Shown: piece after piece, positions 723 through 17,437 of the stretch
Numbering within the stretch: position 1 is the first letter of the stretch
Layout of the letters: every line of letters begins with the position of its first letter
Assembly (NCBI GenBank): GCA_964638585.1
Contig: CAZXAN010000001.1
Coordinates: 108,372-172,371, forward strand
From: an uncultured Candidatus Saccharibacteria bacterium
GTDB taxonomy: Bacteria > Patescibacteriota > Minisyncoccia > Phycocordibacterales > Phycocordibacteraceae
Direction of reading: 5' to 3'
DNA length: 64,000 nucleotides
The notes under the pieces: model-generated
Databases searched by the model: none
Told to the model about the DNA's origin: nothing
What the model saw: the letters and a program-made list of their open reading frames with translations, nothing else
Position numbers and translations under genes: made by a program

Positions 723-2780
723 ATGGTACGCGCTAGCGATTCAAAACGTGTCGGTATCTGGATTCGGGTTTCAACCGAAGACCAGGTAAGGGGCGAAAGC
801 CCGGAAACCCATGAGCGCCGAGCTCGGCTCTACGCCGAAGCCAAGGGCTGGAATGTCATCGAGGTCTACCGCCTCGATGCTGTTTCCGGCAAGACGGTCA
901 AGGAGACGCCGGAAGCAAAGAAGATGCTTGCCGACATCAAGTCGGGGCACATCACAGGACTGATTTTCTCCAAGCTCGCCCGCCTTGCTCGGAACACCAA
1001 GGAACTGCTCGAATTTGCCGAGTTGTTCCGGGAATCCGATGCCGATCTCATCTCCCTCGCGGAATCGATTGACACCTCAACCCCCGCTGGCCGTCTCTTC
1101 TACACCATGATCGCGGCGATGGCTCAGTGGGAGCGTGAGGAGATTTCTGCGCGCGTTGCAGCATCTGTCCCCATCCGCGCAAACATGGGCAAACCAACGG
1201 GCGGTCAAGCGCCATACGGCTACCAGTGGAAGGACAAGAAACTTATCCCTGATGATAAGGAAGCACCAGTTCGCAAACTCATGTATGAACTATTCCGGGA
1301 GCACAAGCGGAAGAAGGCCGTTGCGCGCATCCTCAACGAGAAGGGTTATCGGACTCGGAACGGCTCGAAATTCTCGGACACCACCGTTGACCGTCTGCTC
1401 CGCGACTCCATCACGAAAGGCGTCCGCCGCGCGAACTACACCCGATCAAGCGACAGCAGCAAGGCCTGGGAGTTGAAGCCGGAGAGCGACTGGGTACTAC
1501 AGGAGGTTGAAGCTATCGTCCCGGAAGACCTCTGGAACGAGTGTAATGCGTTTCTGGACGCGCAGCGGGAGAAAGGGAAACGCACCACTCAGCCGACCCT
1601 CCATCTCTTCGCAGGGCTCACGTATTGCGCCTGCGGGCCGAAGATGTATGTCCCGTCGAAGAGCCCCAAGTACACCTGCCAGAAGTGCCGGAACAAGATT
1701 CCAAAGGACGACCTCGAAGCCGTCTTCATCGAACAGATCAAGCATTTCTCAGTTTCGCCGGACGAGATCAGCGCGCACTTGGAACGGGCGAACACCACGA
1801 TTCACACGAAGGCCGAACTTCTTAAGGTCCTCGAATCTGACCGCCAGAAGCTCACTGGCGAGATCGACAAACTTCACGACCTCTATCAGTCCGGGATGAT
1901 CGACAAGCACGGATTCGGTGCGAAATATCACCCCTGGGCTGACCGCCTCCGCCAGCTTGACGAAGAAATTCCTGCTGCCCAAGCCCAGCTCGATGTGATG
2001 AAGATCGGCCACCTTTCCGAAGAAGAAATCGTCTTCGGAGCGAGAGACCTCTATGAGCGGTGGCCCAAGCTCCCGGCCGAAGAAAAGCGTCGGATCATCG
2101 AGGCCATTACCGAGAAAATCATCGTCGGCAAGGACGAGGTTGAGATCAACCTCTACTATGCCCCTCCGCCTTCGGCGTCGGGGCATAGTGGCGGAAGCCC
2201 AAATAGATCAGGGGGTAGCGTTCCCCCTAATACCCCCTTAGATCGCAGCAAAAGAGCAATGAATACTCAGGGTTGCGTTGCTCTTTTGCAACGCGTGCCC
2301 GTTCGGCTTAAAGCATTGAAACCAAAGGAATTTGATTTTGAGCCCCAGACGATTGGGGATCATATCCGCAAACGCCGGCTCCTGCTCAAGCTCACCAAGA
2401 AAGCCGTAGCCGGCATTCTGAAGGTCTCCCAGTTCTCCATAATCAACTGGGAACTGGGGAGATTCCAACCATCGAACGTGTCCACGCTGCACCGCATCAT
2501 CAAGTTTCTCGGCTATGACCCCTTGCCCGTAGGCTGCACCATTCTGGAGCGGCTTCGCCAAAAGCGCCGGCAGATGGGCTGGGGTCAACGGGAGCTTGCC
2601 GAGCACTTTGGAGTGGACCGCTGCACGGTTACTGGGTGGGAACTCGGCGGCACGATCCTCAAGCGCTCGCACCGGTCGATGGTGGCCCGTTTCCTCGGCC
2701 TGGCTGAGGCTGATTTAATGGGCGAAATGGCAGACCGCTGGAACAAAAACCATGGCAAGCGCACTGTGCGTAAACCGTAG
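723..2780 (+). CDS. large serine recombinase (resolvase/invertase N-terminal domain, recombinase domain, zinc ribbon, C-terminal tandem XRE-like HTH)
   Basis: N-terminus VGIWIRVSTEDQ...SPETHE with catalytic Ser context, SKLARLARNTKELLEF resolvase motif, Cys-rich ribbon CACG...CQKC, C-terminal HTH-like repeats. Confidence 0.9.
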   Translation: MVRASDSKRVGIWIRVSTEDQVRGESPETHERRARLYAEAKGWNVIEVYRLDAVSGKTVKETPEAKKMLADIKSGHITGLIFSKLARLARNTKELLEFAELFRESDADLISLAESIDTSTPAGRLFYTMIAAMAQWEREEISARVAASVPIRANMGKPTGGQAPYGYQWKDKKLIPDDKEAPVRKLMYELFREHKRKKAVARILNEKGYRTRNGSKFSDTTVDRLLRDSITKGVRRANYTRSSDSSKAWELKPESDWVLQEVEAIVPEDLWNECNAFLDAQREKGKRTTQPTLHLFAGLTYCACGPKMYVPSKSPKYTCQKCRNKIPKDDLEAVFIEQIKHFSVSPDEISAHLERANTTIHTKAELLKVLESDRQKLTGEIDKLHDLYQSGMIDKHGFGAKYHPWADRLRQLDEEIPAAQAQLDVMKIGHLSEEEIVFGARDLYERWPKLPAEEKRRIIEAITEKIIVGKDEVEINLYYAPPPSASGHSGGSPNRSGGSVPPNTPLDRSKRAMNTQGCVALLQRVPVRLKALKPKEFDFEPQTIGDHIRKRRLLLKLTKKAVAGILKVSQFSIINWELGRFQPSNVSTLHRIIKFLGYDPLPVGCTILERLRQKRRQMGWGQRELAEHFGVDRCTVTGWELGGTILKRSHRSMVARFLGLAEADLMGEMADRWNKNHGKRTVRKP

Positions 2781-3030
2781 CCATTCCACGATTGGGTAAA
2801 TGTCGGTCTGTTATTGTGAACCATCAGCACGTCCTGACTGGGCGTTTCGGGATTAGCCAGTAATCATGGTCGGAATTCGCATTTTCGACTGGAAAGCTGC
2901 GCCCACCGGGATTACCATCCGGGTTGAAGAGTGAATATCGTAACTTCATCCAACATCGCGTTTGGAGAATACCGCTAGTTGGTAGGACACAAAACACCTG
3001 TCGGACACGTCAATGGAGTGAGAGCGCCAT

Positions 3031-4239
3031 TTGGGCGCTTACGCAAGTAATCCTCGGCGTTTCTGGCGCAACGAGTTAACTGCGGATGTGACTGCTATGA
3101 CACCAGAATTCGAAAAACACGTCTCGATGGTATTCGCATGGCTGCAAGCAAGGCCAGTTACACCGAAAAGCATCGTCCTCGATGGCCCGGAAGCGATAGC
3201 GATAGCTTCGGCGACCGGTATGCGCTCCGAAAATCAAGATCGAGTTGCTTTAGTTCGCGTAAGCAATCAAGCTTCTATCGGTGCGAATGTCCAGGCTGCA
3301 GTTCTATTAGACGGCATTGGAGGCATGGCGGATGGGGCCAGTGCCGCATCTCTGGCGTTAGCGTCATTCTCGATATACCTAGCGTTCGGTGATTGCGCGC
3401 GGGGACTAAAGAGCCTCATTATGGAGGCCGCTGAATTTGCTAACGACGTTGTTTATCAGCGCTATCGCGCCCGTGGGGGCACCACGCTAACGGCGGTACT
3501 TTTTGGCAGACAAGGCGCGGTAGGGCTGAGCGTGGGCGACAGTCGTGCCTACATTTGCTCAAAAGCTGGCCTCAGACAATTATCAGAAGACGATACGTTA
3601 TCTGGCCATCTGGGCAACGCGAGTAAAAAGCTGGATCCTTGGCGTTTCCCAGACTCGATTGATAACCGACTATCTCAATTTGTAGGCATGGGAGAAGGTA
3701 TCCAACCACATCTAATCGCCCTTCCGGCCTATGACAGCGCGGAAAGCGAAGCGACACTTCTCCTCATGACTGACGGCGCATATTTTGTGGGTCAGCAGAT
3801 TCTAGAGGTCTTGCTCAGACAAAAATCCGATCCTTCCGAGCTTGCGCAGCGGATTCTTACGATGGCCGAATGGCTGGGCGGCAATGATAACGCATCAATT
3901 GCTGTCGTCCCAGCGCGACCTCAGTTTATAGAAGAACGTTCTGATAGTTCGGCGACACGGCTATCGCTCAGCGCACGCGGTGATACGTTTGCTTTAGTTG
4001 CTTCCGGTAAGATCGAATGGGGCAAGTCGAATGAACATGATCAAGAAGGTGCCCCTCCCTCGAAACAATTAGAAGTAACACCAAGGGTCCGCGAGCAAAC
4101 ACCTTACAACGCAGCGAAGGCCAAGATTAACTATCAACCCGCCACGACTCGCAAAAAAAGCCATAGGAAGTCCGGGCGCACAAAACAAAAGCAACAGAAC
4201 GAAAGCTTGCTGCTGGAATTGGTTTCCGACAAAAAGTGA
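3031..4239 (+). CDS. PP2C-family Ser/Thr protein phosphatase with basic low-complexity C-terminal tail
   Basis: PPM motifs: RSENQDR, VLLDGIGGMADG (DGxGG), GDSRAY, NGGNDNASIAVV; stop overlaps start of next gene. Confidence 0.85.
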   Translation: MGAYASNPRRFWRNELTADVTAMTPEFEKHVSMVFAWLQARPVTPKSIVLDGPEAIAIASATGMRSENQDRVALVRVSNQASIGANVQAAVLLDGIGGMADGASAASLALASFSIYLAFGDCARGLKSLIMEAAEFANDVVYQRYRARGGTTLTAVLFGRQGAVGLSVGDSRAYICSKAGLRQLSEDDTLSGHLGNASKKLDPWRFPDSIDNRLSQFVGMGEGIQPHLIALPAYDSAESEATLLLMTDGAYFVGQQILEVLLRQKSDPSELAQRILTMAEWLGGNDNASIAVVPARPQFIEERSDSSATRLSLSARGDTFALVASGKIEWGKSNEHDQEGAPPSKQLEVTPRVREQTPYNAAKAKINYQPATTRKKSHRKSGRTKQKQQNESLLLELVSDKK

Positions 4240-5291
4240 ATTTTCCGCCGAGATATGTCGTAGAAAGTGGCCCCGTTAGCGGCGGTTTCGGCACTACCCA
4301 TATATGTAATGACTTGCATCTCGCTCGAAAGGTCGTGGTTAAGGAGATTTCAGACAAAACAGAGATGAAGCGGCTAATCGACGAAATCGTAGCACTACAG
4401 CAGGTAAAGTCACGTCATGTGGTTCAAATTTACGATTTGATTATTGATAATGCCAGTGGGAGCCTAGCCCTTGTCGAAGAATTTCTGCCAAATGATGACC
4501 TGATGCATTTTTCAATGTCGGGTTATTCGGTAAAGGGCTACTATGACGCGCTCTATCAAATCTCGTCTGGTGTTCGGGATATTCACGCTTGTGGCATCGT
4601 TCATAGGGATTTGAAGCCCAACAACATGAAGCGGGATCAGGATGGCGCAATAAAGATTTTTGATTTTGGTCTCGCGAAGATTGCACCACTCCCCAAGAGC
4701 ACATCTGTCTTAGTGGGGACGCCTGGGTTTATGGCCCCAGAGTTATTCGAAATGCCTCCAAAGATCGATTTTCCGGTGGACGCTTTTGCGTTTGGTGCGA
4801 CCGCGTTTTTTCTTGCATGTGGGACCTTATACGCAAACGCACCGAAGGGATTTAGCCCACCGCCGCCGCTTCCTGCGGGGGAATCTATCGCGAATCACGT
4901 TGCGGTAACACCAACCATTGCCGACCTGATCGACGGATGCCTTGCTTCTGACCCTAGCATTCGGCCAAAGCTCGCTGATCTTGCAACGGCGCTTAAGCGC
5001 GAATTGCTCGTGGATCGACACCGTGCGCTCGTGGCAGATGGCTCCAGTTCGCTGATCTTGGACAAGGACAGTAGAAAGGTCAGAGCTAGGCGTGGCAAAT
5101 CTGATTCCGTCGAGATTGAGTATGACGGTTATTATTTTAAGATTTCCGAAATTGTCGGTGCCGTTTCAATTAATAACAAGACGGCAACTATTGGCGATGT
5201 ACTTAGTGGATCCCACGTTATTGTACTTGGTGCTGCAGGCATTCGACGGTTTGTCACATTTGACGTTAGTCATCCTGAGGTCCTTGCATGA
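4236..5291 (+). CDS. Hanks-type Ser/Thr protein kinase with about 90-aa C-terminal extension
   Basis: VVVKEI (VAIK-like), HRDLKPNNM catalytic loop, DFGLAK, APE motif; GTG start overlapping upstream stop, ATGA overlap with next gene. Confidence 0.85.
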   Translation: MNFPPRYVVESGPVSGGFGTTHICNDLHLARKVVVKEISDKTEMKRLIDEIVALQQVKSRHVVQIYDLIIDNASGSLALVEEFLPNDDLMHFSMSGYSVKGYYDALYQISSGVRDIHACGIVHRDLKPNNMKRDQDGAIKIFDFGLAKIAPLPKSTSVLVGTPGFMAPELFEMPPKIDFPVDAFAFGATAFFLACGTLYANAPKGFSPPPPLPAGESIANHVAVTPTIADLIDGCLASDPSIRPKLADLATALKRELLVDRHRALVADGSSSLILDKDSRKVRARRGKSDSVEIEYDGYYFKISEIVGAVSINNKTATIGDVLSGSHVIVLGAAGIRRFVTFDVSHPEVLA

Positions 5292-6373
5292 GTCATTTGC
5301 TGCAGGACGGTCAAAAGCTAGGGGGCAGATATGAGATTGTCTCGTTTCTAGACGCAGGTGGAATGCAAGAAGTCTACGTCGCACTCGACCATCTTCTGAA
5401 TCGCCATGTAGCTCTGAAGACACCTTTCACCAAGTCGGGGGAGAAGCGATTTAAGAGGAGTGCCGTACTCGCAGCGCGCATCAATCACCCAAATGTCGCA
5501 AAAACACTTGACTATTTTGGCGGGGATGGGCCGGAAGTGTTAATCGAGGAACTTGTAAACGGTCGCAGTGTAGAGGCGTTGCTCACGGACAAATATCTTT
5601 ACTTTGATCCGTCCCTAGTCGCCCAATTCGGCCATCATTTCAGCAAGGCACTTCAGGCTTCTCATCACGTAGGTGTAGTTCATAGAGATTTAAAGCCCAG
5701 TAATATAATTGCTGAATCTATTGAAGGGAGCTACGAATTCAAAGTTACTGATTTTGGAATCGCTCGTCTGGTGGAACACGAACTGGAAGATTCAACCGAT
5801 GCTAATGAATCATTAGGAACGGCTGGATCGTCAACGATCGTCGGGGCATTACCGTATATGGCCCCTGAGATGATCGAGACACCCAAAAAGACCGATAAGC
5901 CGGTAGATATTTGGGCTTTTGGCGCGATTCTTTATCGCATCATGACTGGCAACTACCCCTTTGGAATTGGTTTGGCAGCGGTACCCAAGATTTACGAGGC
6001 GAAGCCACCGCCGAAGCCAGCTCTAATCAATCAGTTGCTCCAATTCCGCGTTTTGGGAAATACAATTTGGGATATCGCCATTCGGTGCATGTCGAAGGAT
6101 CCGGCCCAACGACCGGATGCCGATCATCTTGTGGAGCAATTTTCAAATCTTTCTTACAGCGATAAGCCCCGGATCAATGCGACTATCTCAAGTTTCAGGC
6201 CGAAGGGATATGCTTGGGGATATCTCAGCTCTGGCTTAGATGCTTACTTCTTTCACCGAGATAGCTTTTACGGCCCCCTAGATCTTATCCAGGTTGGAGC
6301 AAAAGTATCCTGTTGCATTAATCCCGGGGGAGGCAATGACCGTGCACACCCAGTGTTACCTCTTAAGAGCTAA
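5288..6373 (+). CDS. Hanks-type Ser/Thr protein kinase with C-terminal cold-shock-like (OB-fold) domain
   Basis: VALKTP, VVHRDLKPSNII, TDFGIARL, YMAPE; C-terminus KGYAWGYLSSGLDAYFFHRDSF...GAKVSCCINPGGGNDRAHPV resembles CspA-type CSD. Confidence 0.8.
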   Translation: MSHLLQDGQKLGGRYEIVSFLDAGGMQEVYVALDHLLNRHVALKTPFTKSGEKRFKRSAVLAARINHPNVAKTLDYFGGDGPEVLIEELVNGRSVEALLTDKYLYFDPSLVAQFGHHFSKALQASHHVGVVHRDLKPSNIIAESIEGSYEFKVTDFGIARLVEHELEDSTDANESLGTAGSSTIVGALPYMAPEMIETPKKTDKPVDIWAFGAILYRIMTGNYPFGIGLAAVPKIYEAKPPPKPALINQLLQFRVLGNTIWDIAIRCMSKDPAQRPDADHLVEQFSNLSYSDKPRINATISSFRPKGYAWGYLSSGLDAYFFHRDSFYGPLDLIQVGAKVSCCINPGGGNDRAHPVLPLKS

Positions 6374-6432
6374 CAAGAACCACCGACAAGTCTAAAGAGG
6401 GTCTTTTCTGTCACACCGTCGGCGGGCCCGAC

Positions 6433-6825
6433 ATGGTGAGCAACATGGATATATTCAATGACCTAAGGATTACCGGTCTCGATGAGGCGTCCTCACATAT
6501 CGAAGAGAAGGGAAACTCGGAATTTCACCTATCGCTTTCAACGCCGCCGCTAGGCGAATGGGTCATCTGCTTTCAGAACGCGTGGTCACACATCTTTTAC
6601 AATACCAAGGTCCGTGCCGATGTATCTGGTGGCAGTATCGTAGTCGAATGTCACCATTCAACTTTGAACGAACACATTCAATATCTCAAAGAAGCCATTG
6701 AGGAAGCGAATCGCTCATGCAGAGAGCAGCATGCTGCGTATATAAACCAGCAGTCCGCGGAAAATCGAGAAGAACAAAAGCGCCAGAAGATATTGGCTGA
6801 CGTGAAGAGGAATCTGAAACTATAG
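6433..6825 (+). CDS. hypothetical protein, last gene of phosphatase-kinase operon
   Basis: 130-aa ORF 60 nt after kinase 2, same strand; no recognisable motif. Confidence 0.4.
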   Translation: MVSNMDIFNDLRITGLDEASSHIEEKGNSEFHLSLSTPPLGEWVICFQNAWSHIFYNTKVRADVSGGSIVVECHHSTLNEHIQYLKEAIEEANRSCREQHAAYINQQSAENREEQKRQKILADVKRNLKL

Positions 6826-6970
6826 CAGCGACGATAGATTACTAACATTCGCCGTCGGTGAGAATTCCGCAGGCGAACGTTGTACTAGTACCAATGGTGT
6901 GAATACATATAACCTACCATAAGAATTGCGGCTGCCACCGTTTGAGCATGAATAATTATATACAGCGTAA

Positions 6971-9751
6971 TTAATCGTTTTTCTTTTGCTTCGTAAGCGA
7001 CCGTGCAATCACTTCCGCAATCGCCTGCCTTCGTGCGCCCGCATCCTTCGGATCTACCACCTGCTGCACAGTACGCACCTTGTACCCGCGAACGGTCTGC
7101 TCTGTAGGTGGCGGGGCTGCGCCCAATGAGTCGAGGTATTCGGTTAGGCTCTCCGGCACGATGTATCGCACCTTGCCCTGCTCGCGCTCGTCCAGATTCT
7201 CTTCGACGAACTTGGCAAGGGCTTTGATGTGCCGCTCATTGCTTCCGACCAACACAACCTCGGTGTAGCCGGCGGCCAGACACTTTTCGACATTGCCGAG
7301 CTCATGGTCCTGATTTGTCGTCACCGATATCTCGCAGGCGATTCGACTCGCGCCGCGGACGAGTGACACGTCAACACGGCCGGCGCCGTCAAGGATCGTT
7401 TCCTCGATCGATGCCCGGAATCCTCGCTCTTCCGCGAGCTGCTTAAAGAGATGCTGCAGGTACTTGTGCTGCTGACCGCCGCGTCCCGATTCCGGAATGG
7501 TCTTCTGGACCTTCGTCGTCTTGGCCTTTACTTCCGTCGTCGGCTTGGGCGCAACGGAAATGGTCACTTGCTCAGGTTCGGCAATGGACGGTGCCGGCTC
7601 CGGCGCGGTCAGTATCTCAGGCTCGTTTGTCGGCGCGGCTTCCTGAACACGCTTCGCTAAACCCTGAGCTACGGGTGCAGGTCGTGTCCCTCGAGGCGGC
7701 GTCGGCGAGGGAGTGTAGGAGGGTAACACTGGCGGCGCGCTGTACCGCTCTCGATTATCTTCAAGCAACGCTTCCTGCTCCCTAGCTTCGAGCGTCGGCA
7801 GTGCCTCGACAAAGCCAAGCGGTATCGTCACCGAAAGAGCCTTGTTCGTGTAGTTCTTCACGTGGCAGGCAAATTCGGTGTGATTCCGCTGTTTCTTTTG
7901 CGACAACAAGAACGCCGCATCGCAACGGAACTCCGAATCGAGCGCGCTGGCGTCCTTGGCACTCAGTCCTCCGGCAAACTTGATAGTAGTGCTTGCGAGC
8001 ACGCTTGAGCGCAGTCCCGCGCCGAGCTGGTCGAGGTTCTGGTGCGCAAAGATTAGACCGACGCGGTACTTCCTGGCTTGGTTGAGAAGATGAGAAATGT
8101 TCTCGTCAAAGTAATCCTGGGCTTCGTCGATGTACACGAAGCTCGACTGGCGCTTGTACGCGGGTATGGCGGCCCGCTGCACCGCCGCCTGGGCGATCAA
8201 GGCAATGAAGAAGCGGCCGAAGATGGCGGACCCTTCTTGTCCCAAGAGGTCTTTGGCCGTATTGATGAGGATGATCTTGCCTTCGTTCAATAGCTCGAAG
8301 ATATCGATCTTGTTTCGAGGGTGCGAAAACATCCGCTCAAGGGATGCGTTGGACAAGACACCCCATAGGCGCGTCAAAATTTGCTTCTTGGTCTCATTGA
8401 ACTGGCGATCAAAGAATCGTGTCTCAAAAAAGCTCCGAGCCGTTCCGGTGAGCTTCGCCATGTATGGTCGGAACCGCTCGCTGTCTTCCATGAGTTCCCG
8501 GAGCGTGTGAATGGTGGCATCCGGTATTTCAATCAGCAGGCGCGCCAGATACTTGAAGATGAGTCCCTGGCGTTGGGTAAGCTCGGCGCCGAGAAGCGCC
8601 CCGAAGAAGTATTCGTAGAGTTCAATCGTCGCGTTGAGTATCTTTTCCCGATCAACCGGGGCGTATCCCGAAAGACGGTCTCGGTTGAAGTCGAACATGT
8701 TGAGACATACGGGGTGCTCGACATCGTTCGGATCGACCAGGACGAAGCGGTCGGCAAGGCTGCGAGATGCGGACGGGCTGAAGTATGAAAGGCGGGAAAT
8801 GGTCCGGATGAGGTCGCCCTGGCTATCCATCACCACGACCGAGCGGTTGTCCTCCTGTGCCCGTACCAAGTCATGATTGATGAGAAACTGCATGAGCTGC
8901 GTCTTGCCGTGCCCGGTACCGCCAACGATGTGCGTGTGCTCGAAGCGCGCCGGAAACGGGATGGCGAACGGTAAGGGAGCATGGAAAAAGCGAATGAACG
9001 GCGTTGCTTGCAGGTATGCCTCAATGAGGAATTCGGGAGACTGGTTCTTCTGCTGCGAGGGCAGCTTGGCCTTTCCCGCTGCCTCATGAAATTTTTCTGG
9101 AGGAATGCCAGAGGCGTGCAGGGCATTCAGGTCGAATCGCTCGCGCAGCGTCTGAAACAGGTTGGCATTGGCCACGTCCTGATCGAAGAACGTGATCAGC
9201 AGCCGATCTATGACTTCAGGAATGTTGTCGCATAGGTCATACGCCTTTGCTTCCGGCAGCACCACTGAATCATCGGCGGCGACGCCCTTCTCATCGATGT
9301 CGGTGAAGGCGGAGAGCGGGAGGTATCCGAGAATGCCGGAAAACAGGTACACGAGCTTGTCGCGCCAGATGGTAAGGAGGCGCTGCTGATCGGCGATGAA
9401 GCGCAGGTGGCGGTTGAGGGTCTTGCGAAGTTCGACGCCCTCTTCCATGGTGAGGTGCTCAAGGGACGATTCCTCGGGAAGCTCGACCATGAACCCTTCA
9501 AGGTACAAGAGGCCGGTAATCGCCGACCATAATGCCTCACCGAGCGGAATGGAGGGCGTGACGCCCCGCATTTCGCAGATTTCGTGAATAAGGTCGAGCA
9601 GGAAATTGGCCCTCTTTTTGTCGCTGCCAAGAGGCGATGCGTCGCGCGCCTGTTTGACCCGCGCGTAGAGCTCGGCCATCTCCCGAAGCTCGCGTTCGCG
9701 AGCCGATCCGAGGAACGTGTCCTGAAACCAGTTCCAGGCGTTAGTGGACAC
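6971..9751 (-). CDS. TraD/VirD4-like (T4CP-type) P-loop NTPase with N-terminal extension and C-terminal nuclease-like domain
   Basis: Walker A HIVGGTGHGKTQ, MDSQGD (DPxG-like), Walker B FVYIDEAQ, AHQNLDQL; C-terminal RVDVSLV...ACEISVTT...GYTEVVLV reminiscent of restriction-endonuclease-like fold; paralogue of 10175..11377. Confidence 0.7.
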   Translation of the reverse strand: MSTNAWNWFQDTFLGSARERELREMAELYARVKQARDASPLGSDKKRANFLLDLIHEICEMRGVTPSIPLGEALWSAITGLLYLEGFMVELPEESSLEHLTMEEGVELRKTLNRHLRFIADQQRLLTIWRDKLVYLFSGILGYLPLSAFTDIDEKGVAADDSVVLPEAKAYDLCDNIPEVIDRLLITFFDQDVANANLFQTLRERFDLNALHASGIPPEKFHEAAGKAKLPSQQKNQSPEFLIEAYLQATPFIRFFHAPLPFAIPFPARFEHTHIVGGTGHGKTQLMQFLINHDLVRAQEDNRSVVVMDSQGDLIRTISRLSYFSPSASRSLADRFVLVDPNDVEHPVCLNMFDFNRDRLSGYAPVDREKILNATIELYEYFFGALLGAELTQRQGLIFKYLARLLIEIPDATIHTLRELMEDSERFRPYMAKLTGTARSFFETRFFDRQFNETKKQILTRLWGVLSNASLERMFSHPRNKIDIFELLNEGKIILINTAKDLLGQEGSAIFGRFFIALIAQAAVQRAAIPAYKRQSSFVYIDEAQDYFDENISHLLNQARKYRVGLIFAHQNLDQLGAGLRSSVLASTTIKFAGGLSAKDASALDSEFRCDAAFLLSQKKQRNHTEFACHVKNYTNKALSVTIPLGFVEALPTLEAREQEALLEDNRERYSAPPVLPSYTPSPTPPRGTRPAPVAQGLAKRVQEAAPTNEPEILTAPEPAPSIAEPEQVTISVAPKPTTEVKAKTTKVQKTIPESGRGGQQHKYLQHLFKQLAEERGFRASIEETILDGAGRVDVSLVRGASRIACEISVTTNQDHELGNVEKCLAAGYTEVVLVGSNERHIKALAKFVEENLDEREQGKVRYIVPESLTEYLDSLGAAPPPTEQTVRGYKVRTVQQVVDPKDAGARRQAIAEVIARSLTKQKKND

Positions 9752-9752
9752 G

Positions 9753-10139
9753 TTACTTCAGCTCGATCACTTCCTCGCCGCCAAAGGTGGCGGCTGCCTC
9801 CAGCACGTTCTTGAAGGTCTGGGCAGCTTCCTTGATCTGATCCTCGACCGCAAGCATTTCAACGATATCTTTGCAATCGATTTTCTTGCCTCCCTGCAAG
9901 TCATTGACCGACACCGAGATATTCATCATCTTGAAGGCAAGCCGTGAGGCGAGCCCCAATAGCCCGCTACCTTTATCGATAATCTTGTCACGCTCATAGA
10001 GCATCGTGTCGCCGAGCTTATATTTGCTGATATTGTTCTTTTCCTCGGGCGTAAGTTCGGAGCGGACCGTGAGCGTGAACGTGATTTTGCCAATGCCGAT
10101 AATTCCCGATTTCTGGTCCCGCCGTAGCAATAATTTCAT
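9753..10139 (-). CDS. hypothetical protein between the two ATPase paralogues
   Basis: 128-aa ORF; 3-nt spacing to downstream gene, operon context. Confidence 0.4.
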   Translation of the reverse strand: MKLLLRRDQKSGIIGIGKITFTLTVRSELTPEEKNNISKYKLGDTMLYERDKIIDKGSGLLGLASRLAFKMMNISVSVNDLQGGKKIDCKDIVEMLAVEDQIKEAAQTFKNVLEAAATFGGEEVIELK

Positions 10140-10174
10140 TGTTGCATCCCTGTGGGTTATGGACCGCCCGGTTA

Positions 10175-11377
10175 TTATGCTCCCGACATTCCCTGAATCT
10201 CAAGACCCATCGGGTGCAGCGTTGTTGCGCTAAAGGGCTTGCTCGGCGACCCATCAATCATGAGCTTCAGATAGATGTCATGGTTGGCCAGATTCACCAG
10301 GTCTTCGGGGACGAACACCGGCTCAAATTCCTGGGCGAAGATCCGCGCATCCTCGGGGCCAAGGCGGAAGGAAATAATGGTGCCGACGTTGCCGAGCACC
10401 GCATGCCGAACCTCGGGCTCCAATTGGTATAGATGCTGGTGAGCGAGAATCAATCCCACATGGAACTTGCGCAATTCCGACACCATGTTTGCTACCGACA
10501 AGGTGGTAAAGCTTTGGAATTCGTCGATCAATACTATGAAGTCCGGCCTACCTGATTCTTCAGTATCGGCCCGGCTGAAGGCCGCCAAACCCAGTGTCGT
10601 CACCAGAAGCGCACCCAAAAGGTTGGCACTGTCCTCGCCTAAGCGCCCTTTGGCCAGGTTGACGATGAGAATCTTCCCCTCGTCCATGATTTGCCGAAAA
10701 TGAAGGTCAACCGTTGGAGTGGTAAACATCCGGTAGAGGCGCGGGTCGGCAAGAAAGGCGCCGACCTTGTTTTGAATCGGGGCGATGGATTCCTGGCGAT
10801 ACCGAGGGTTATAGTTTGGGAATTCCTTGGCCCAGAACAGCCTCACCTGTTCGTTTTTGACGCGACCGAGCACCTGGTTTCGAAATGATTTGTCGGTGAG
10901 CATTCGCAAGATGTCTGGAAGCGTAGCATCGCCGGCTTCAATGAGTGCGAAAAGCGTGTTTCTTAGGATGTGCTCCATCCTCACTCCCCAGGCTTCATCC
11001 CACAGTTTTTTGAAAGCTTCCATGAGGCCGGACGCTGCGAGCGGTATTCTGTCCGTTTGCACGCGGCGCAATGGGTTGTATCCGAACCGCTGAGAAGTGT
11101 CCGGGGCATTCAGGTAGATGAGGTCGCGCTCGCGCCACCGGGGAACCTGCGCGACAAGCCGTTCGGCGAGATCCCCGTGGGGATCGATCACCGCCACTCC
11201 GCGCCCGCGCATCATGTCTTGCAAGGCGACAGTTTCTAGAAGCGTCGTTTTTCCTGTTCCGGTCTTGCCGATGGCGTACGTATGAAAAAGCCGGTCGGCC
11301 TGCTTTATGCCGAAGGTCCGGTGCGGGTTACGCGCGTTGGTTATTGCGAAGTATGAAATAGTTGGGTTCCTGAGCAT
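10175..11377 (-). CDS. TraD/VirD4-like (T4CP-type) P-loop NTPase, ATPase core only
   Basis: Walker A AIGKTGTGKTT, VIDPHGD, Walker B FIVLIDEFQ, LILAHQHLYQL; about 35-40 percent identical across the core to the 921-aa backbone protein at 55791..58556. Confidence 0.75.
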   Translation of the reverse strand: MLRNPTISYFAITNARNPHRTFGIKQADRLFHTYAIGKTGTGKTTLLETVALQDMMRGRGVAVIDPHGDLAERLVAQVPRWRERDLIYLNAPDTSQRFGYNPLRRVQTDRIPLAASGLMEAFKKLWDEAWGVRMEHILRNTLFALIEAGDATLPDILRMLTDKSFRNQVLGRVKNEQVRLFWAKEFPNYNPRYRQESIAPIQNKVGAFLADPRLYRMFTTPTVDLHFRQIMDEGKILIVNLAKGRLGEDSANLLGALLVTTLGLAAFSRADTEESGRPDFIVLIDEFQSFTTLSVANMVSELRKFHVGLILAHQHLYQLEPEVRHAVLGNVGTIISFRLGPEDARIFAQEFEPVFVPEDLVNLANHDIYLKLMIDGSPSKPFSATTLHPMGLEIQGMSGA

Positions 11378-11513: not shown

Positions 11514-12080
11514 ATGGATTACTTAGATCATTCAGATGTGAAATTATTGGGGGTGCTTGTAGGGGAAAAGACCGCTCAGCGGCTGTATCAGGGAAGCTTG
11601 GTATCGCTCTTTGCAACGGGATCGATTGGTCAGGAGATGCATCCGAGAATTGCAGCAGCTCGGGAACTGGTAAAGCGAGTGCTAAAGGAGGAGATGAAGC
11701 GTGGTGCCATGCTGTCGAGCCCGGCTGCCGTGAGGGAGTACCTTCGGCTTCTCTTGATCGGGAAGGAGTATGAGGTGTTCGTAGTGCTTTTTCTCGACGC
11801 GCAGAACCGTATGATTGAGGCTGAAGAACTATTCCGCGGGACACTCACGCAAACGTCGGTGTATCCCCGGGAGGTAGTGAAGCGCGCGCTCTATCACAAT
11901 GCGGGGGCGGTAATCTTCGGCCATAATCATCCCTCCGGCGTAGCGGAACCGAGTCATGCGGATGAAGCCCTGACACAAGCCCTCAAACAGGCGCTTGCTC
12001 TTGTTGATGTGCGGGTGCTCGACCATTTCATCGTGGCCGGCAACGGAGTGATGAGCTTCGCCGAAAGGGGGTCGATATAA
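11514..12080 (+). CDS. radC: RadC-family JAB/MPN domain protein
   Basis: N-terminal HhH-like region, JAMM motif [15 protein letters not shown]; divergent from ATPase operon. Confidence 0.9.
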   Translation: MDYLDHSDVKLLGVLVGEKTAQRLYQGSLVSLFATGSIGQEMHPRIAAARELVKRVLKEEMKRGAMLSSPAAVREYLRLLLIGKEYEVFVVLFLDAQNRMIEAEELFRGTLTQTSVYPREVVKRALYHNAGAVIFGHNHPSGVAEPSHADEALTQALKQALALVDVRVLDHFIVAGNGVMSFAERGSI

Positions 12081-12181
12081 CCTCAGTCGAGTGATCAAAG
12101 CTCTAGACCTACCTACCGGTAGGTCTCATTTTTTTGATACCTATCGCGGCCTTTTGTTTGAAGTACGCAAAGCGGCACACT

Positions 12182-13114
12182 CTAGACCATTGCCGCTTCT
12201 ATTTCGTTGAGGATAAGAAAAATATTTCTAAGAATCCCCCAGAAAAAGCCGGCAAGCCCGACTGTAAGGACACCAACAATCCCAAGAAGTGGGAAATATA
12301 TGAATCCCTCCCCAAATATCGCGGTTTCGTAGCCAATAATATTAAACGACACCGTACCTAATATCGCAATAAGCAGTGCAAGAGCAACACCTAGCAAGGT
12401 GGACCATTTCTGGTGACAACGTTCCAGTGCAGAAGCAGTCGGGTTTGTTCCGCTACCGGTCCTTGGGAGCACTGAAATTCGATGTAAGAAATCCATCAGC
12501 GTTAATAGCATCGCAAACAATACCCCAACACTTGCATAGAATTTAACGTTCTTGTGAGGCAGCTCTATTGCAAAAAGGATTGCAGCAAATGACAGCAGCA
12601 CCAGCAGAAAAATGGAGAAAAACCGTGCCAATATCCCCCTCCTAAAAAAAGTAGAAATGAGTGCAAGGGCAAAAATAGTCAACGCGCAAATCACCGCCGT
12701 AGCGTAGAAAAATTTGCGCGGCGATAAGTCTTGTGCTGCCTTCATTTTTTCAATGTAATCCAATGCTATGAGCCGCTTCTCCTTCAAGCGATCATAGAGA
12801 ACACTCGACGAGCATCCGATTCCTTCCGTTGACTGCTCCTTGGCAACTTGCCGGCTCGGGGGTTTGGTAGGCTCCTTGCGCATCGCTCGGATGTGTTCCG
12901 CACGGCACTCCGCCCTTTCAGCTTCAACAAAAGATTCTTTAAATTCCCGGATCACTAGGTGCCCCGCTGCCTCGGCCGCCTTAAACAAATCTTTGTTCTC
13001 CTGGTCGTACCAATAGGGAGCACCCATAAGTATGCAGAAGAATAGAGTGAACCATATGCACAGCGACATGGTGTAGCCCCCAGAGGTCGACTGCCGGTCG
13101 TACCAAGCGTTCAT
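12182..13114 (-). CDS. polytopic membrane protein, function unknown
   Basis: multiple hydrophobic helices; likely start MNAWYD at 13112-13114 overlapping stop of upstream DedA-like gene. Confidence 0.5.
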   Translation of the reverse strand: MNAWYDRQSTSGGYTMSLCIWFTLFFCILMGAPYWYDQENKDLFKAAEAAGHLVIREFKESFVEAERAECRAEHIRAMRKEPTKPPSRQVAKEQSTEGIGCSSSVLYDRLKEKRLIALDYIEKMKAAQDLSPRKFFYATAVICALTIFALALISTFFRRGILARFFSIFLLVLLSFAAILFAIELPHKNVKFYASVGVLFAMLLTLMDFLHRISVLPRTGSGTNPTASALERCHQKWSTLLGVALALLIAILGTVSFNIIGYETAIFGEGFIYFPLLGIVGVLTVGLAGFFWGILRNIFLILNEIEAAMV

Positions 13115-13779
13115 AGCTCCTCCGATCCCGAAAATATGTGTTTCGCAAAATAAAACAGAACTAGCGATACAGCGCCTACGGATACTGCCACCGCGATGGT
13201 GTATTGAAAGGCGAAATCTCCAAACAGATAACCGAGGCCGGTCCAAATCATCACCCAGATACTAATCCCGCATATGGAACTCGTAGAAAACGCGATATGG
13301 CTCATTCGACTACACCCAGCAGGGTAAGAAGCTATAGAGCGGGCTACAGGAACAAGTCTGATAAGTACAACCCGTAACCAACCTTGCTCTCTGAAAGACC
13401 TAACCAGAACAGGCATCCAGGCCGTATATGTATATGCGAAAATGTACCACCAACGCTCCCGATAGTTTTGCACTCTCTTCCAGATCGGCGTCATAGATGA
13501 TTTCGCATCGCGTAACCCTACCAAATACCAAAGAGTGGTACCTAGGTGATTTGAAATAATCGCTAAAGCGACAAACGTTGATGGATTAATGTCATGCGCG
13601 ACTGCGTACATTCCAGCGGCCACACAGATATATTCACTCGGCGGTATCATGATTGAAGAGTTCAAAAACATCAACACCACGACCAGTACGGCTACAAATA
13701 AGGGACTGGGGAGAGAGAATACTGTGCGGACTGTCCCCTCGATGTCCATCAGCCTGTATAGGTCAAGAACTACCTCCAT
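13111..13779 (-). CDS. DedA/VTT-family-like membrane protein
   Basis: hydrophobic profile and LIRLVPVARSIASYPAG segment resembling DedA R-x-x-P-x-x-R region; internal start MEVVLDLY chosen. Confidence 0.5.
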   Translation of the reverse strand: MEVVLDLYRLMDIEGTVRTVFSLPSPLFVAVLVVVLMFLNSSIMIPPSEYICVAAGMYAVAHDINPSTFVALAIISNHLGTTLWYLVGLRDAKSSMTPIWKRVQNYRERWWYIFAYTYTAWMPVLVRSFREQGWLRVVLIRLVPVARSIASYPAGCSRMSHIAFSTSSICGISIWVMIWTGLGYLFGDFAFQYTIAVAVSVGAVSLVLFYFAKHIFSGSEEL

Positions 13780-14477
13780 CCCGGCCTTCCAGCGGCAGGC
13801 ATTGCGACAAAGGCTATCGAGGCAAGGACGAACAGAATCAAGCCTAAGTATGATAAGGAGGAACCGATCGACACCGTACAGGCAGGAATAAGGAGCGAAA
13901 TTGGAATGATGCCCTTCCACTGCAAAGCCGCGCAGCTCCGTTTTACTAAAGATGACACCTTCGAAGAACAGTCTTGCGCAATGTTCCCATACGGGTCCAT
14001 GCATGGGGCTGGCATCCACTTGACTAGCGAGCGTTCATCTTCACGAATGCTTTTCGAATAGAGCATACTCGTGAGATATTTCCTTTCTTCCTTGGTGATA
14101 TGTTTCGCGGTCTTGTGCAGCACGATTTCAATAGCATTAAATTGGGGTCCAAAAAAATGGGATACAAAGGCCCTGCCAATCTCCAATTCCGCAAAAATGC
14201 GGTCCCTATAAAACCTGATGTGCACTTCATTGTTCCCGTCATATGGCAGCACCAATCCAGCAAGCTGAGAGTCATATATGTATTGCCAAGGGGTCTCTCT
14301 GAAACCTATTTGTTTTAGCTTTTCGTATAGTTTCAGAGAAATGGGATCTTTTAATAAACGACCAGCAACAATACGTGGTGAGAGAATGCCAAATGAGCGT
14401 AGGCGGCGTTTCATTGCCCGGACCTGTAATTTTCCGGTCGCATGGCGACTATCACTTAGTGCTGTTTGCATTAGCAT
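13770..14477 (-). CDS. hypothetical protein, first gene of membrane-protein operon
   Basis: 235-aa ORF whose stop overlaps DedA-like start; no recognisable motif. Confidence 0.35.
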   Translation of the reverse strand: MLMQTALSDSRHATGKLQVRAMKRRLRSFGILSPRIVAGRLLKDPISLKLYEKLKQIGFRETPWQYIYDSQLAGLVLPYDGNNEVHIRFYRDRIFAELEIGRAFVSHFFGPQFNAIEIVLHKTAKHITKEERKYLTSMLYSKSIREDERSLVKWMPAPCMDPYGNIAQDCSSKVSSLVKRSCAALQWKGIIPISLLIPACTVSIGSSLSYLGLILFVLASIAFVAMPAAGRPGWR

Positions 14478-14626
14478 GTCACGGTTGTGGAAGTATCGTA
14501 TTTTTCAGTATATGATCTAAGCATAAACAATACAATGGGTGTTTTTATTTCTGAGGTATGCGATCGCGTTTGCCATCTCTGCCGGGAACAGCGAGCTGCT
14601 GGAAAACGTCGAGGCGGAAGAATTCG

Positions 14627-14812
14627 ATGATTGCGCAAGAACTTATTGATCTGCGCGAACGAATGCATTGGTCGCAAATCGAAGCTGCGCACCAACTGGG
14701 CTGCTCTCGTCGTGCTATTGCCGATTGGGAAGGAGGCAATACGCCCATACCCAATAGCATCGCGCTCGTAGTTTCCACTGCCGTTTTGAACATTTGTTGG
14801 GACCGTCGATAG
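14627..14812 (+). CDS. small XRE-family HTH protein
   Basis: MIAQELIDLRERMHWSQIEAAHQLGCSRRAIADWEGG typical Cro/C1 HTH. Confidence 0.6.
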   Translation: MIAQELIDLRERMHWSQIEAAHQLGCSRRAIADWEGGNTPIPNSIALVVSTAVLNICWDRR

Positions 14813-14883
14813 CTGAATGCGAGGGCACCTCTTCATCTCGCTACGTACTGCACCGTATATGTGGTTCGACGGCCCCTCGCTCC

Positions 14884-15591
14884 CTACAGTACATTCAAAT
14901 CGTCGAAATCCGCAATTGCTGTGGTGTCCGGTACGCGCCTTGCGATAAAGAGGCCGACGACGGGGACGTTTGGATACCTGGTGTTCAGCACCCGTTTCAT
15001 TGCCGTGAAGTGACAGCCCGTCGTAAGGACGTCATCAAACAAAAAAATGGTTTGCGGGGCGGGTTCTGCCACCGATTCCTTTATTTCATAGTTAGCAACC
15101 AGGTCGTCCGGTCTTGGTCGAATGTCGGTGTCATGCGCAGGCTCGACTGATTTCGTTTGCACCACGAGTTCGCGGATATCTGCGTTGCGACCTCGCTCGA
15201 TTTGCTGGAGCATCTGCAACATCCGATTATCATATTCGGGATGATCGGTGGCCTTCGAAGGTGGAATGGGAACAAGGGTGATCTGGGGCAGCGCATCTTC
15301 GCGGATGGCGTCCCGAAATATGGACGCGGCGCGCGCAATCGCCTGCTCTTTGTAGCGCCACTCCGGTCGACCCCGCCGCATCGGACTTTTCTTGAAATTG
15401 ATGATTAGTCCGTTCGTTTCGCTAAACGCATAGCCTTTTCGGGCAGTGTACTCTCCCCAGTAGTAGCATGTGTCCTCTGGGCTCAGGTAGTAGTGATCTG
15501 GGCGGACGAGATCATCAATCAGTTGCAGTCGCGCCAAGATGTCCCCTGATATCGTCGTAGCCTTGGACCCGAATGGCCCCTTGTGCCTCAA
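14884..15591 (-). CDS. ComF/ComFC-like phosphoribosyltransferase-domain protein, no zinc finger
   Basis: PRTase type I motif IFLFDDVLTTGCHF near C-terminus; overlaps stop of dprA-like gene. Confidence 0.75.
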   Translation of the reverse strand: MRHKGPFGSKATTISGDILARLQLIDDLVRPDHYYLSPEDTCYYWGEYTARKGYAFSETNGLIINFKKSPMRRGRPEWRYKEQAIARAASIFRDAIREDALPQITLVPIPPSKATDHPEYDNRMLQMLQQIERGRNADIRELVVQTKSVEPAHDTDIRPRPDDLVANYEIKESVAEPAPQTIFLFDDVLTTGCHFTAMKRVLNTRYPNVPVVGLFIARRVPDTTAIADFDDLNVL

Positions 15592-16420
15592 AGCGCCGGG
15601 GCCAAGTCAATGCAGAGTTTCGGAAACAACTATCAAGGATGAAAAGTTTTCGTCCTTGGGCCAGTGCGGCACGGGCCTGAGTCAGCGTGCCCGAGGTCTC
15701 ACCGGCTTCAATAATAATCGTGGCTTCCGTGAGCGCAGACATCGTGATGTTACGTTCTGGGAAGAACAGCCGATTGCCCTTATACGTCTGCTGTGCGTAG
15801 CGGCATACCGGAACCTGACTTATTAGGAGATAGTTCTCAGCGATTTGCCGTTGAAGTTCGGCGTTCTCGGTCGGGTAGATCTTGTTTAGTGGCGTGCCGA
15901 TTACCGCGATGGTGAAGCCCTTGCTTTCAATTGCGGTCGTGTGAGCGACCGTATCGATCCCTTTCGCCAACCCAGAGACTATGCCGAATTTGTCTTTGAC
16001 TAATAACTTGACCATTTTTCGAGCACGGCGAATCCCGTCCTCGGACGGAGTACGTGTCCCGACTATGGCGACAAGTCGCGGGTGGTTCACCAAGTCCCAC
16101 CAACCTTGGTAATACAACATCTCAATGGGATGCCAGGCATCCCGCAGGCGTTCGGGATACTCGCCCGCACCGTGTACGCGAACGCCAAATTTGTGAATAC
16201 CTGCTTTCGCAAGGAACCTGAGAGTCTTTTCGGCGAAACTCTCTGCTTCTGCTCGGGGGACAAAATTTGATGGAACCGCATTCGCTTTCTTGCGAAACAT
16301 ATCGGCGATTGACTTGAAAGACGCACCGTTTCTGTCCCAGAGTGCTTCATATGCCCCCAACTCCCATAGCGGGGAGATCGGTGGTGATGTGAAACCGGCG
16401 TCAATCAGCGTATCAGTCAT
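15515..16420 (-). CDS. dprA: DprA/Smf-family (SLOG superfamily) Rossmann-fold protein
   Basis: VAIVGTRTPS, GIVSGLAKGIDTVAHTTAI, IAVIGTPLNKIYP, EAGETSGTLTQARAALAQGRKLFIL match DprA core. Confidence 0.85.
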   Translation of the reverse strand: MTDTLIDAGFTSPPISPLWELGAYEALWDRNGASFKSIADMFRKKANAVPSNFVPRAEAESFAEKTLRFLAKAGIHKFGVRVHGAGEYPERLRDAWHPIEMLYYQGWWDLVNHPRLVAIVGTRTPSEDGIRRARKMVKLLVKDKFGIVSGLAKGIDTVAHTTAIESKGFTIAVIGTPLNKIYPTENAELQRQIAENYLLISQVPVCRYAQQTYKGNRLFFPERNITMSALTEATIIIEAGETSGTLTQARAALAQGRKLFILDSCFRNSALTWPRRFEAQGAIRVQGYDDIRGHLGATATD

Positions 16421-16603
16421 CGTAATATCACCAAAGAGAGAGATTGCGAGCTATGCAGTTAGTCACGCGACTACCGCGATGAGGATCAGGAGTCAAGTCA
16501 GCAATGCGCTAAGAGGTTATACGCCACAACGCTCGCCCATTCCAGAAAGCTTTGCCCGCGATAGGATTCGAATCGGGAACGATTGATAAATGTACATAAT
16601 GCA

Positions 16604-16939
16604 TCACTTACTTGCTGAACCAAGCAGCCACATCAGTGCGGCCACGACACCTGCCCCGACGAGCAAATTCTTCACGTGTTCCCGTGCTGCCTCTTGCTGC
16701 TTGTCGGCGGTGGATTGGAACTGGCGCATAAGCGCGACTTGATACGCGCTCGGCTTAAGGACACCACGTTCCCATTTACTCACGGTCATGGCATGCGTGT
16801 CGAATAGTTGTCCAAATTCAACTTGTGACAACCCGAGGGCCCGGCGGAGCGTCGCGACATCAAATGCAATCATAAGCCTGATACTAACCCAATTCGTAAG
16901 CCTACGCTTAGCTCTTTTTCTCAGCAAGAGCGCGAACAA
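16604..16939 (-). CDS. XRE-family HTH protein with C-terminal transmembrane anchor
   Basis: LRRALGLSQVEFGQLFDTHAMTVSKWERG HTH plus C-terminal hydrophobic LLVGAGVVAALMWLLG. Confidence 0.6.
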   Translation of the reverse strand: MFALLLRKRAKRRLTNWVSIRLMIAFDVATLRRALGLSQVEFGQLFDTHAMTVSKWERGVLKPSAYQVALMRQFQSTADKQQEAAREHVKNLLVGAGVVAALMWLLGSASK

Positions 16940-17227
16940 TTTCCTAACGAGGCTTCTTCGCTCCAGACCGATGGGGCGAGCTAGGATGTCCGCCCGAATT
17001 TACCAATGTCAATGACACGCTGAGCGCCGCCACATTTGCTGCCCATCAACGAGACCGTGTACCAACAAACTCTAAGAATCTTTCAAATTGGCAGATTTGT
17101 CGCCGGCGAATACACCTGGAGCCTACCTTGCATCGCTGTTGAAGCGGTGCATGCCCGAACTGTCACGTCGCTCTTGGGCACGTTTTCACCTCTTTGATGT
17201 CACTTTCAGCGCTCCTACGCTCTCGCC

Positions 17228-17437
17228 ATGGACGACAAGGAAGCACAGCGCGTCCGGGAGGCTTATAAGCAAGAGTTTGGCGAAGACCTTACGGAAAAAG
17301 AAGCAAGTGTAATGCTCACGCAGCTGGTGCAGCTTTATCTTCACATCTCGCGCCAGTTGCCACCTGACACGTCCGGCAATACCGACACTCTCAAAAAATA
17401 CAGTCGCTTCTCTAATGGATCATTGATGGCGGAATAG
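17228..17437 (+). CDS. small conserved protein, repeated family A (MDDKEAQRVRE...LVQLYLHISR)
   Basis: one of 4-5 paralogous copies (also 20353, 36957, 41044, 48430) with conserved upstream DNA. Confidence 0.5.
   Translation: MDDKEAQRVREAYKQEFGEDLTEKEASVMLTQLVQLYLHISRQLPPDTSGNTDTLKKYSRFSNGSLMAE

Follow-up and report, generated by a model that had tools for sequence, protein, structure and literature searches.

Organisation of the locus

The DNA analysed here, referred to throughout as the window, is a stretch of 64,000 nucleotides (nt) of contig CAZXAN010000001.1 (positions 108,372 to 172,371 of the forward strand, assembly GCA_964638585.1), assigned to an uncultured Candidatus Saccharibacteria bacterium. 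Close to its start lies an operon encoding a PP2C (PPM) Ser/Thr phosphatase followed by two Hanks-type Ser/Thr kinases, termed kinase 1 and kinase 2. This operon is very probably a kinase-kinase-phosphatase (KKP) module of the PfpC-PfkB-PfkA type, carried as cargo by a non-phage mobile island. Such confidence applies to its membership of the family; the individual functional details of KKP action, transferred here by analogy, would each merit less.

The three genes and a gene for a 130-amino-acid (aa) protein downstream of them are co-directional (Table 1), and a check of the open reading frames (ORFs) recovered all four at the positions and on the plus strand where a first-pass annotation of the window had placed them. 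The stop codon of the phosphatase gene overlaps the start codon of kinase 1 in a GTGA at 4236-4239, and the stop codon of kinase 1 overlaps the start codon of kinase 2 in an ATGA at 5288-5291. Both overlaps were read from the sequence, and the translational coupling of these three genes proposed in that annotation is therefore upheld. In public gene calls (four public contigs with an identical locus) the phosphatase starts at ATG 3097 and is 380 aa long, so that the gene measures 1143-1209 bp depending on the start chosen, while the genes of kinase 1 and kinase 2 measure 1056 bp and 1086 bp, respectively. Because the ORFs are long, their domain matches strong and their full-length homologues number in the hundreds, chance ORFs can be excluded. 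A promoter and terminator scan of positions 2700-7100 returned no more sites than were found in shuffled sequence.

In the description of Guo et al. (2024, PMC11341870), KKP is a tripartite toxin-antitoxin system of kinases and a phosphatase with two roles, the blocking of lytic phages and the regulation of prophages. Its genes follow the order PfpC (PP2C), PfkB (a kinase-FHA protein) and PfkA (a kinase fused to a cold-shock domain in which a GFI/GFA motif occurs), the cold-shock-domain kinase being named as the defining feature of the system, and it was searched for as adjacent PP2C-kinase-kinase genes of 900-1300 bp each (PMC11341870). In the window, a PP2C gene and two kinase genes follow one another in this order, on the same strand and each within this size range.

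Domain architecture of the phosphatase and the two kinases

The first gene encodes a PP2C phosphatase (PF13672/COG0631) with its catalytic motifs. The phosphatase domain occupies approximately residues 45-271 of the 380-aa form and is followed by a basic, poorly conserved C-terminal tail of about 100 aa. The match to Pfam PP2C_2 (PF13672) is sub-threshold (E 0.019, 15 bits versus 24), and the same family is recorded for the phosphatase homologues of three of the loci compared below (L007, L009 and L010). The NCBIfam model Stp1_PP2C_phos (Stp1/IreP) matches at E 3.9e-26 over positions 7-231 of its 232. A search of the PDB retrieved PstP, MspP and Stp1 (E 3.5e-12 to 1e-7, with PstP entries 2cm1/1txo at E 3.5e-12), and the metal-site motifs DGxGG, TDG and DNxS align with those of the solved phosphatases.

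The last gene encodes a kinase with a C-terminal cold-shock domain, as PfkA does. Its kinase domain spans approximately residues 13-290 (Pfam Pkinase, E 6.6e-37), with GGM24, VALK41-44, HRD132 (in HRDLKP), DFG155 and an APE motif. The cold-shock domain follows at residues 292-361 (window 6161-6370). Pfam gave no cold-shock match to this tail, either alone or within family members (31 members were scanned for the tails of both kinases). A profile of the tail was made from alignment A1 (this one, for kinase 2, and its counterpart A2, for kinase 1, were built from homologues found by search) and was run against the PDB; it returned 35 matches, almost all of them cold-shock domains, the best at E 4.5e-10, in proteins including Unr/CSDE1, CspB, CspA and YB-1. 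AlphaFold2 modelled the tail as a five-stranded barrel at a mean pLDDT (predicted local distance difference test) of 96.2. All 50 Foldseek matches listed against the PDB were cold-shock domains or proteins containing them (two being RNase II), the best with template-modelling (TM) scores of 0.76-0.81. In addition, some kinase-2 homologues carry a precomputed PF00313 assignment. Profile and predicted fold together thus bear out the CspA-type domain that the first-pass annotation had suspected at this C-terminus.

Kinase 1, the product of the middle gene, has its kinase domain at approximately residues 15-250 (Pfam Pkinase, E ~6e-37). In the alignment of homologues its motifs are GGF16, VVVK33-36, HRD123 (in HRDLKP) and DFG143, an APE motif is intact as well, and GGF and GGM are equally frequent among its relatives. 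For each kinase, the catalytic motifs are kept in nearly all of 120 homologues. Judged by their sequences, both proteins possess the GGM, HRD and DFG catalytic motifs that characterise KKP kinases, with GGF standing for GGM in kinase 1. The remainder of kinase 1 (residues 258-351, window 5007-5288) was modelled by AlphaFold2 as a confident all-beta sandwich (pLDDT 91.5) of FHA fold. On this model kinase 1 is a kinase-FHA fusion, and the middle gene has the architecture of PfkB. A profile of this tail (alignment A2) compared with PDB sequences produced noise only, with no significant match. The first-pass annotation had proposed that both C-terminal extensions be subjected to profile searches and structure prediction; that analysis sustained its call for kinase 2 and revealed, in kinase 1, an FHA fold that it had overlooked.

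Within the FHA tail, conservation is highest at the very C-terminus of kinase 1 (residues ~337-351, window 5244-5288), which reads R-x-F-V-T-F-D-V-S-H-P-E-V. SHPEV or SHPEI is found in 86 of 120 kinase-1 homologues, and alignment A2 shows no variation at the D, P and E; in the model of the isolated domain, confidence is low for the final residues. This FDVSHPEV end may serve the partner kinase or the phosphatase as a docking peptide or a pseudosubstrate.

Kinase domains of this type also occur in other defence systems. PADLOC models for mad6 match the two kinases (E 3.8e-37 and 1.5e-49) and those for mad8 match the two ATPases encoded downstream (E 5e-18 and 4.5e-20), as they might if kinases and ATPases formed a system resembling MADS (methylation-associated defence). 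However, the mad6 matches span the generic kinase domain only, and NCBIfam antiphage_MADS6 reaches 72.4 and 99.9 bits against a cut-off of 460, likewise over the kinase domain only. The ATPases have no NCBIfam MADS8 match, resemble coupling proteins of TraD/VirD4 type and lie on the opposite strand, and no methyltransferase or other MADS gene was present among the genes examined. We rejected this reading on the failed NCBIfam cut-offs and the gene context, and its probability is close to nil. PADLOC models for PD-T4-6 match the kinase domains only, too, with E down to 1e-49. The likeness to PD-T4-6 of E. coli and to staphylococcal Stk2 consists of the Hanks kinase domain, and in those systems the infected cell is arrested as the kinase phosphorylates host proteins promiscuously. 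Both are single kinases, however, without a partner kinase, a PP2C antitoxin, or an FHA or cold-shock domain, whereas the operon described here belongs to a three-gene cassette that is conserved in all 20 related loci compared. Assignment to the single-kinase class was discarded for this reason.

Homologous triplets and their genomic settings

We compared 20 loci with a full-length relative of kinase 2, using the window proteins in tblastn searches. All 20 contain the PP2C, kinase-1 and kinase-2 genes as a colinear triplet. The 4-nt overlap between the two kinase genes is kept in each of the five other loci for which gene calls or annotation exist, which is in keeping with the published dose dependence of KKP toxicity. 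The closest named relative is the triplet of Nitrosospira briensis (50, 68 and 73% identity for phosphatase, kinase 1 and kinase 2), and the supplementary list of the published catalogue names N. briensis Nsp8 together with Methylicorpusculum oleiharenae and Desulfobacula phenolica, the species of the window's named relatives (PMC11341870). The triplet of an E. coli P2 prophage is more distant (32, 35 and 46%), with both kinases aligning end to end, C-terminal tails included. All three window proteins are thus homologous, along their full length, both to triplets from catalogue species and to P2-prophage copies.

Where these triplets reside is also informative. Eleven of the 20 loci correspond to a P2 prophage hotspot, with portal and terminase genes on one side and a match to P2 gpA on the other, and this agrees with the description in the KKP paper. 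A circular E. coli record, evidently a P2-type phage, has the triplet adjoining the portal gene; in a P2-like prophage of Rahnella it is flanked by gpA, the replication gene, and the portal gene, and on a Rhizobium conjugative plasmid it adjoins a Shedu gene and an SbcCD-like pair. A profile search with full-length alignment found full-length relatives on 14 IMG/VR viral contigs, and a search of viral contigs with the cold-shock-domain alignment alone gave nothing confirmable. When genome contigs were searched with the kinase-2 alignment, which contains generic motifs (HRDLKP, DFG), the only true relative among the matches listed was that of Carnimonas (L011), the others being housekeeping kinases from Actinomycetota, Bacillota and other phyla. 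Overall, the triplet occurs patchily in Beta-, Gamma- and Alphaproteobacteria and in Desulfobacterota.

More than 1200 KKP clusters are known from Gram-negative bacteria, over 90% of them in P2, P4, Mu-like or Pf6-like prophages, and most of the rest adjoin integrases, transposases, toxin-antitoxin genes or restriction-modification genes (PMC11341870). The window module shares with KKP the gene order, the gene sizes, the three domain architectures, intact catalytic motifs, the coupling of the kinase genes and a mobile location. Unlike most members of the family, it sits on a non-phage island, among mobile-element and defence genes; since KKP clusters beside integrases and transposons have already been reported, this location stays within the published family. 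The conflict role that the first-pass annotation had held plausible thus gains substance from gene order, sizes, domains and homology, all of which are those of an antiphage KKP module. The kinase-kinase-phosphatase antiphage trio that it had mentioned is KKP itself (PMC11341870), and the operon is homologous over its full length to the triplets of catalogue species.

Several observations weigh against this assignment or against carrying it too far. Firstly, the tail of kinase 1 matches no Pfam family on its own, none of the 31 family members scanned matches Pfam FHA, and the canonical FHA signature GR...SxxH...NG is not apparent in it by eye; the domain is recognisable by fold only, unlike in described KKP, and any binding of phosphothreonine by this predicted domain is putative. 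Secondly, the cold-shock motif of kinase 2 is G-Y-L (residues 311-313, in W-G-Y-L) and so differs from the GFI/GFA of described KKP, which is the functionally tested form. We counted motifs in a kinase-2 alignment of 120 sequences (119 homologues and the window). Two of them, the window included, have GYL, while GFI is by far the commonest and most relatives read W-G-F-I. Thirdly, the triplets of N. briensis and Sulfuricella, the closest relatives, lie amid housekeeping and metabolic genes, and within 10 kb of them no gene is obviously that of a mobile element. Finally, toxicity, antitoxin activity and phage defence would here be extrapolated from homologues of 35-50% identity, and our alignments cover relatives other than the experimentally tested proteins of P. 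aeruginosa MPAO1, E. coli 15EC039, Shewanella W3-18-1 and S. Typhi CT18. It should be kept in mind that the module, 35-50% identical to the enterobacterial copies of KKP, is known here from sequence alone.

As regards the cold-shock motif, every variant in the 120 sequences has the Gly and the middle residue is usually aromatic; at the level of sequence, G-Y-L for GFI/GFA is a conservative substitution. As regards the tail of kinase 1, Pfam is blind to the FHA domain of PfkB-like kinases in the clade of the window, and since the domain escapes it, searches that require PF00498 would miss such modules. Neither the motif variant nor an FHA domain recognised by fold puts the module beyond the described family.

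In the N. briensis locus (L007, FOVJ01000002.1, 7777-11101) the three genes stand bare, as an insertion with ubiA-ubiD on one side and a gene for a short-chain dehydrogenase on the other. That of Sulfuricella (L009) resembles it, the triplet again having no integrase within 10 kb.

These two loci are relevant to another reading, namely that the operon is a housekeeping Ser/Thr kinase-phosphatase pair of the PknB/PstP or Stk1/Stp1 type, serving growth or the envelope. PP2C-Hanks kinase operons are common housekeeping regulators, here too a PP2C gene lies just upstream of a Hanks kinase gene with a product matching the Stp1/PstP folds, and the relatives in N. briensis and Sulfuricella have metabolic neighbours. 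Stk1/Stp1-type systems are nevertheless different in kind. Here both kinases are cytoplasmic and end in FHA and cold-shock domains, with no transmembrane segment and no PASTA (none in Pfam) or other sensor domain; the cut-off of NCBIfam PknB_PASTA_kin is 450 bits, and the kinases score 74.4 and 160.6, solely across the kinase domain. The cassette is compact and patchily distributed, occurring in the P2 hotspot, on conjugative plasmids next to Shedu and on IMG/VR viral contigs, and even the N. briensis triplet looks like an insertion between ubiD and the dehydrogenase gene. We consider a housekeeping role very improbable. The survey of neighbourhoods that the first-pass annotation had suggested, for enrichment in mobile and defence genes, accordingly came out in its favour for the 11 loci of the P2 hotspot and the Shedu-bearing plasmid, and against it for N. 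briensis and Sulfuricella.

Predicted mode of action

In characterised KKP, neither PfkA nor PfkB is toxic singly; the pair autophosphorylates and phosphorylates many essential proteins, among them PolA, TopA, DnaG, InfB, FtsZ and MinCE, which results in division arrest (PMC11341870). Toxicity hinges on how the two kinases are dosed relative to each other and needs both C-terminal domains as well as the GFI motif, and the C-terminal domains have been modelled within the kinase-kinase interface (PMC11341870). Since the catalytic motifs of the phosphatase are required for neutralisation of the kinases, KKP amounts to a tripartite toxin-antitoxin system (PMC11341870). Protection against lytic phages is conferred by modules from Pseudomonas, Shewanella, Vibrio, E. 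coli and Salmonella; Gp59 of phage T4, the sole trigger identified so far, binds the phosphatase and partly inhibits it, and kinase toxicity is released (PMC11341870).

By analogy, the two kinases of the window would act jointly, probably as a heterodimer held together via N- and C-terminal domains. Once active, they would phosphorylate many essential host proteins of replication, translation and division and so bring growth to arrest, while the phosphatase, as the predicted antitoxin, would steadily undo this phosphorylation. A phage protein inhibiting the phosphatase, as T4 Gp59 does in the tested case, would tip the balance; the infected cell would then arrest and phage production would be blocked. 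The same balance of kinases and phosphatase may also regulate the resident mobile element, through phosphorylation of a nucleoid-silencing protein.

A different mechanism was put forward in the first-pass annotation, in which the cold-shock domain of kinase 2 is a sensor and the binding of phage single-stranded DNA (ssDNA) or RNA switches the kinases on. The fold is a bona fide cold-shock fold, the aromatic positions of the nucleic-acid-binding motifs of cold-shock proteins are retained (W-G-Y-L, Y-F-F-H), and mutation of the equivalent GFI/GFA motif abolishes both toxicity and defence in the tested KKPs (PMC11341870), all of which would be compatible with sensing. However, the only known trigger is a protein, Gp59, and acts on the phosphatase; the C-terminal domains are, in the published model, part of the contact between the kinases; and the kinase pair is toxic in uninfected cells, so that no phage nucleic acid is required. 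Nucleic-acid sensing therefore seems to us distinctly unlikely, and activation through the phosphatase, as in described KKP, is preferred.

The 130-aa gene and the surrounding island

The operon is flanked by the features listed in Table 1.

Table 1. Coordinates of the operon and of other features of the window.
Feature	Position	Strand	Remarks
Large serine recombinase	723-2780	+	685 aa; Resolvase E 4.7e-32, Recombinase E 2e-17, zinc ribbon
PfpC-like PP2C (PPM) Ser/Thr phosphatase, predicted antitoxin	3031-4239	+	TTG start, 402 aa
Kinase 1, PfkB-like Hanks Ser/Thr kinase	4236-5291	+	351 aa, GTG start
Kinase 2, PfkA-like Hanks Ser/Thr kinase	5288-6373	+	361 aa, ATG start
130-aa gene, no known function	6433-6825	+	Co-directional with kinase 2
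Two paralogous TraD/VirD4/HerA-like P-loop ATPases	6971-11377	-	926 aa and 400 aa; on either side of a 128-aa gene without family
RadC-like JAB	11514-12080		
DprA/SLOG-like gene	15515-16420		
E1-like ThiF/DUF6791 gene	17817-19085		NCBIfam PRK06153 family, 513 bits
NACHT NTPase with C-terminal FGE-sulfatase/EgtB-like protein	25057-27789		910 aa
IS66 transposase	30608-32143		
Mu-like/rve transposase	34685-36190	-	In a block of ~62% GC
Mrr_cat-STAND (nSTAND_NTPase5)-TPR protein	38225-40999	-	924 aa; Avs-like antiviral STAND architecture
ResIII/SNF2-type helicase	41499-44417		
Group II intron reverse transcriptase/maturase	44554-45951	-	Adjoins the ResIII helicase
Third TraD-like ATPase	55791-58556		921 aa
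Core genes FKBP, tgt, uvrB	from ~58.7 kb onward		

The gene directly after the operon had been counted among the coupled genes in the first-pass annotation, and this did not hold. A 59-nt spacer (6373 to 6433), with no overlap, separates it from kinase 2, it is missing from all 20 other KKP loci in the tblastn comparison, and its homologues occur without kinases. Pfam, NCBIfam and PADLOC contain no family for the 130-aa protein, a weak Pfam match to EMP24/GOLD (E 0.0012) falling below the cut-off, and a word-indexed search retrieved only the protein itself. An exhaustive HMMER search found 135 family representatives, most of them about 125-135 aa long. The gene of the nearest homologue (locus L170) adjoins an HTH-peptidase M78 (ImmA/IrrE-like) gene amid small genes of unknown function, with no kinase or phosphatase nearby. 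A role as fourth KKP component was rejected on the spacer, the absence from the 20 loci and the separate family. Because it is missing from those loci and has a homologue with no kinase nearby, we judge the gene to be independent cargo of the island, from an uncharacterised family of small proteins.

Upstream of the phosphatase gene the large serine recombinase that the first-pass annotation had reported beside the operon was found, with no other gene between them. Two XRE-type helix-turn-helix (HTH) domains are fused to its C-terminus (residues ~545-600 and 609-660; HTH_19/HTH_3/HTH_31), and its NCBIfam matches are CcrB/CcrC/XisF-like and all below the cut-offs. It is likely to serve as integrase, either to the island or to a sub-element carrying the KKP module. 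The fusion of a recombinase to HTH domains is unusual; through it, integration or excision might be tied to DNA binding of a repressor-like kind.

We weighed whether the module mainly controls or stabilises such an element, be it that phosphorylation of an H-NS/MvaT-like protein or of another regulator sets excision or transfer, or be it by addiction. The P. aeruginosa KKP tunes production of Pf4/Pf6 via phosphorylation of MvaU (PMC11341870). Moreover, the module comes directly after a recombinase fused to two XRE-type HTH domains, and the island has TraD-like ATPases as well as RadC and DprA-like genes. On the other hand, the recombinase is conserved beside KKP in none of the 20 other loci (tblastn), and four heterologous KKP modules from unrelated prophages defend E. 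coli in the absence of their native elements (PMC11341870). Control of the element as the main function is thus a possibility that we take seriously but hold to be unlikely; in published KKP, control of an element and phage defence are not mutually exclusive. Our preferred reading remains that of a KKP module carried as island cargo.

The rest of the island supports the mobile, defence-rich setting described in the first-pass annotation, with its recombinase, IS66 and Mu-like transposases, intron, TraD-like ATPases and STAND and NACHT proteins. By eye, the 926-aa ATPase has a long Pro/Ala-rich linker and a C-terminus resembling PD-(D/E)xK nucleases. The cluster of genes from 11514 to 19085 is typical of the accessory regions of integrative elements; a 206-aa ORF (17420-18040) overlaps the ThiF/DUF6791 gene, and this region may be a ubiquitin-like conjugation cassette. 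The NACHT-FGE-sulfatase protein is a candidate for a bacterial defence protein of NLR type, in which the effector or sensor domain is unusual. A tgt-like gene (59265-60536) was considered as DpdA and rejected, being an ordinary housekeeping Tgt.

Implications

One further scenario would give the locus a broader significance. A non-phage integrative element may have captured a KKP module and wired it to its own life cycle, the kinases phosphorylating the HTH-bearing recombinase or a nucleoid silencer and the Tyr-containing cold-shock domain sensing nucleic acid, such as transferred ssDNA. We regard this as improbable; if true, it would constitute a phosphorylation switch linking the activity of a conjugative or integrative element to growth arrest resembling abortive infection.

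The operon is real and is not new in kind, being a further member of a described and experimentally validated system. It raises no new question: the ligands of the cold-shock and FHA domains, and any triggers other than Gp59, are matters beyond sequence analysis. In public records its genes are unnamed or carry the generic name 'serine/threonine protein kinase', and they can now be labelled as KKP. To the family, the locus adds a Betaproteobacteria-like, non-prophage KKP with a G-Y-L variant of the functionally critical motif.

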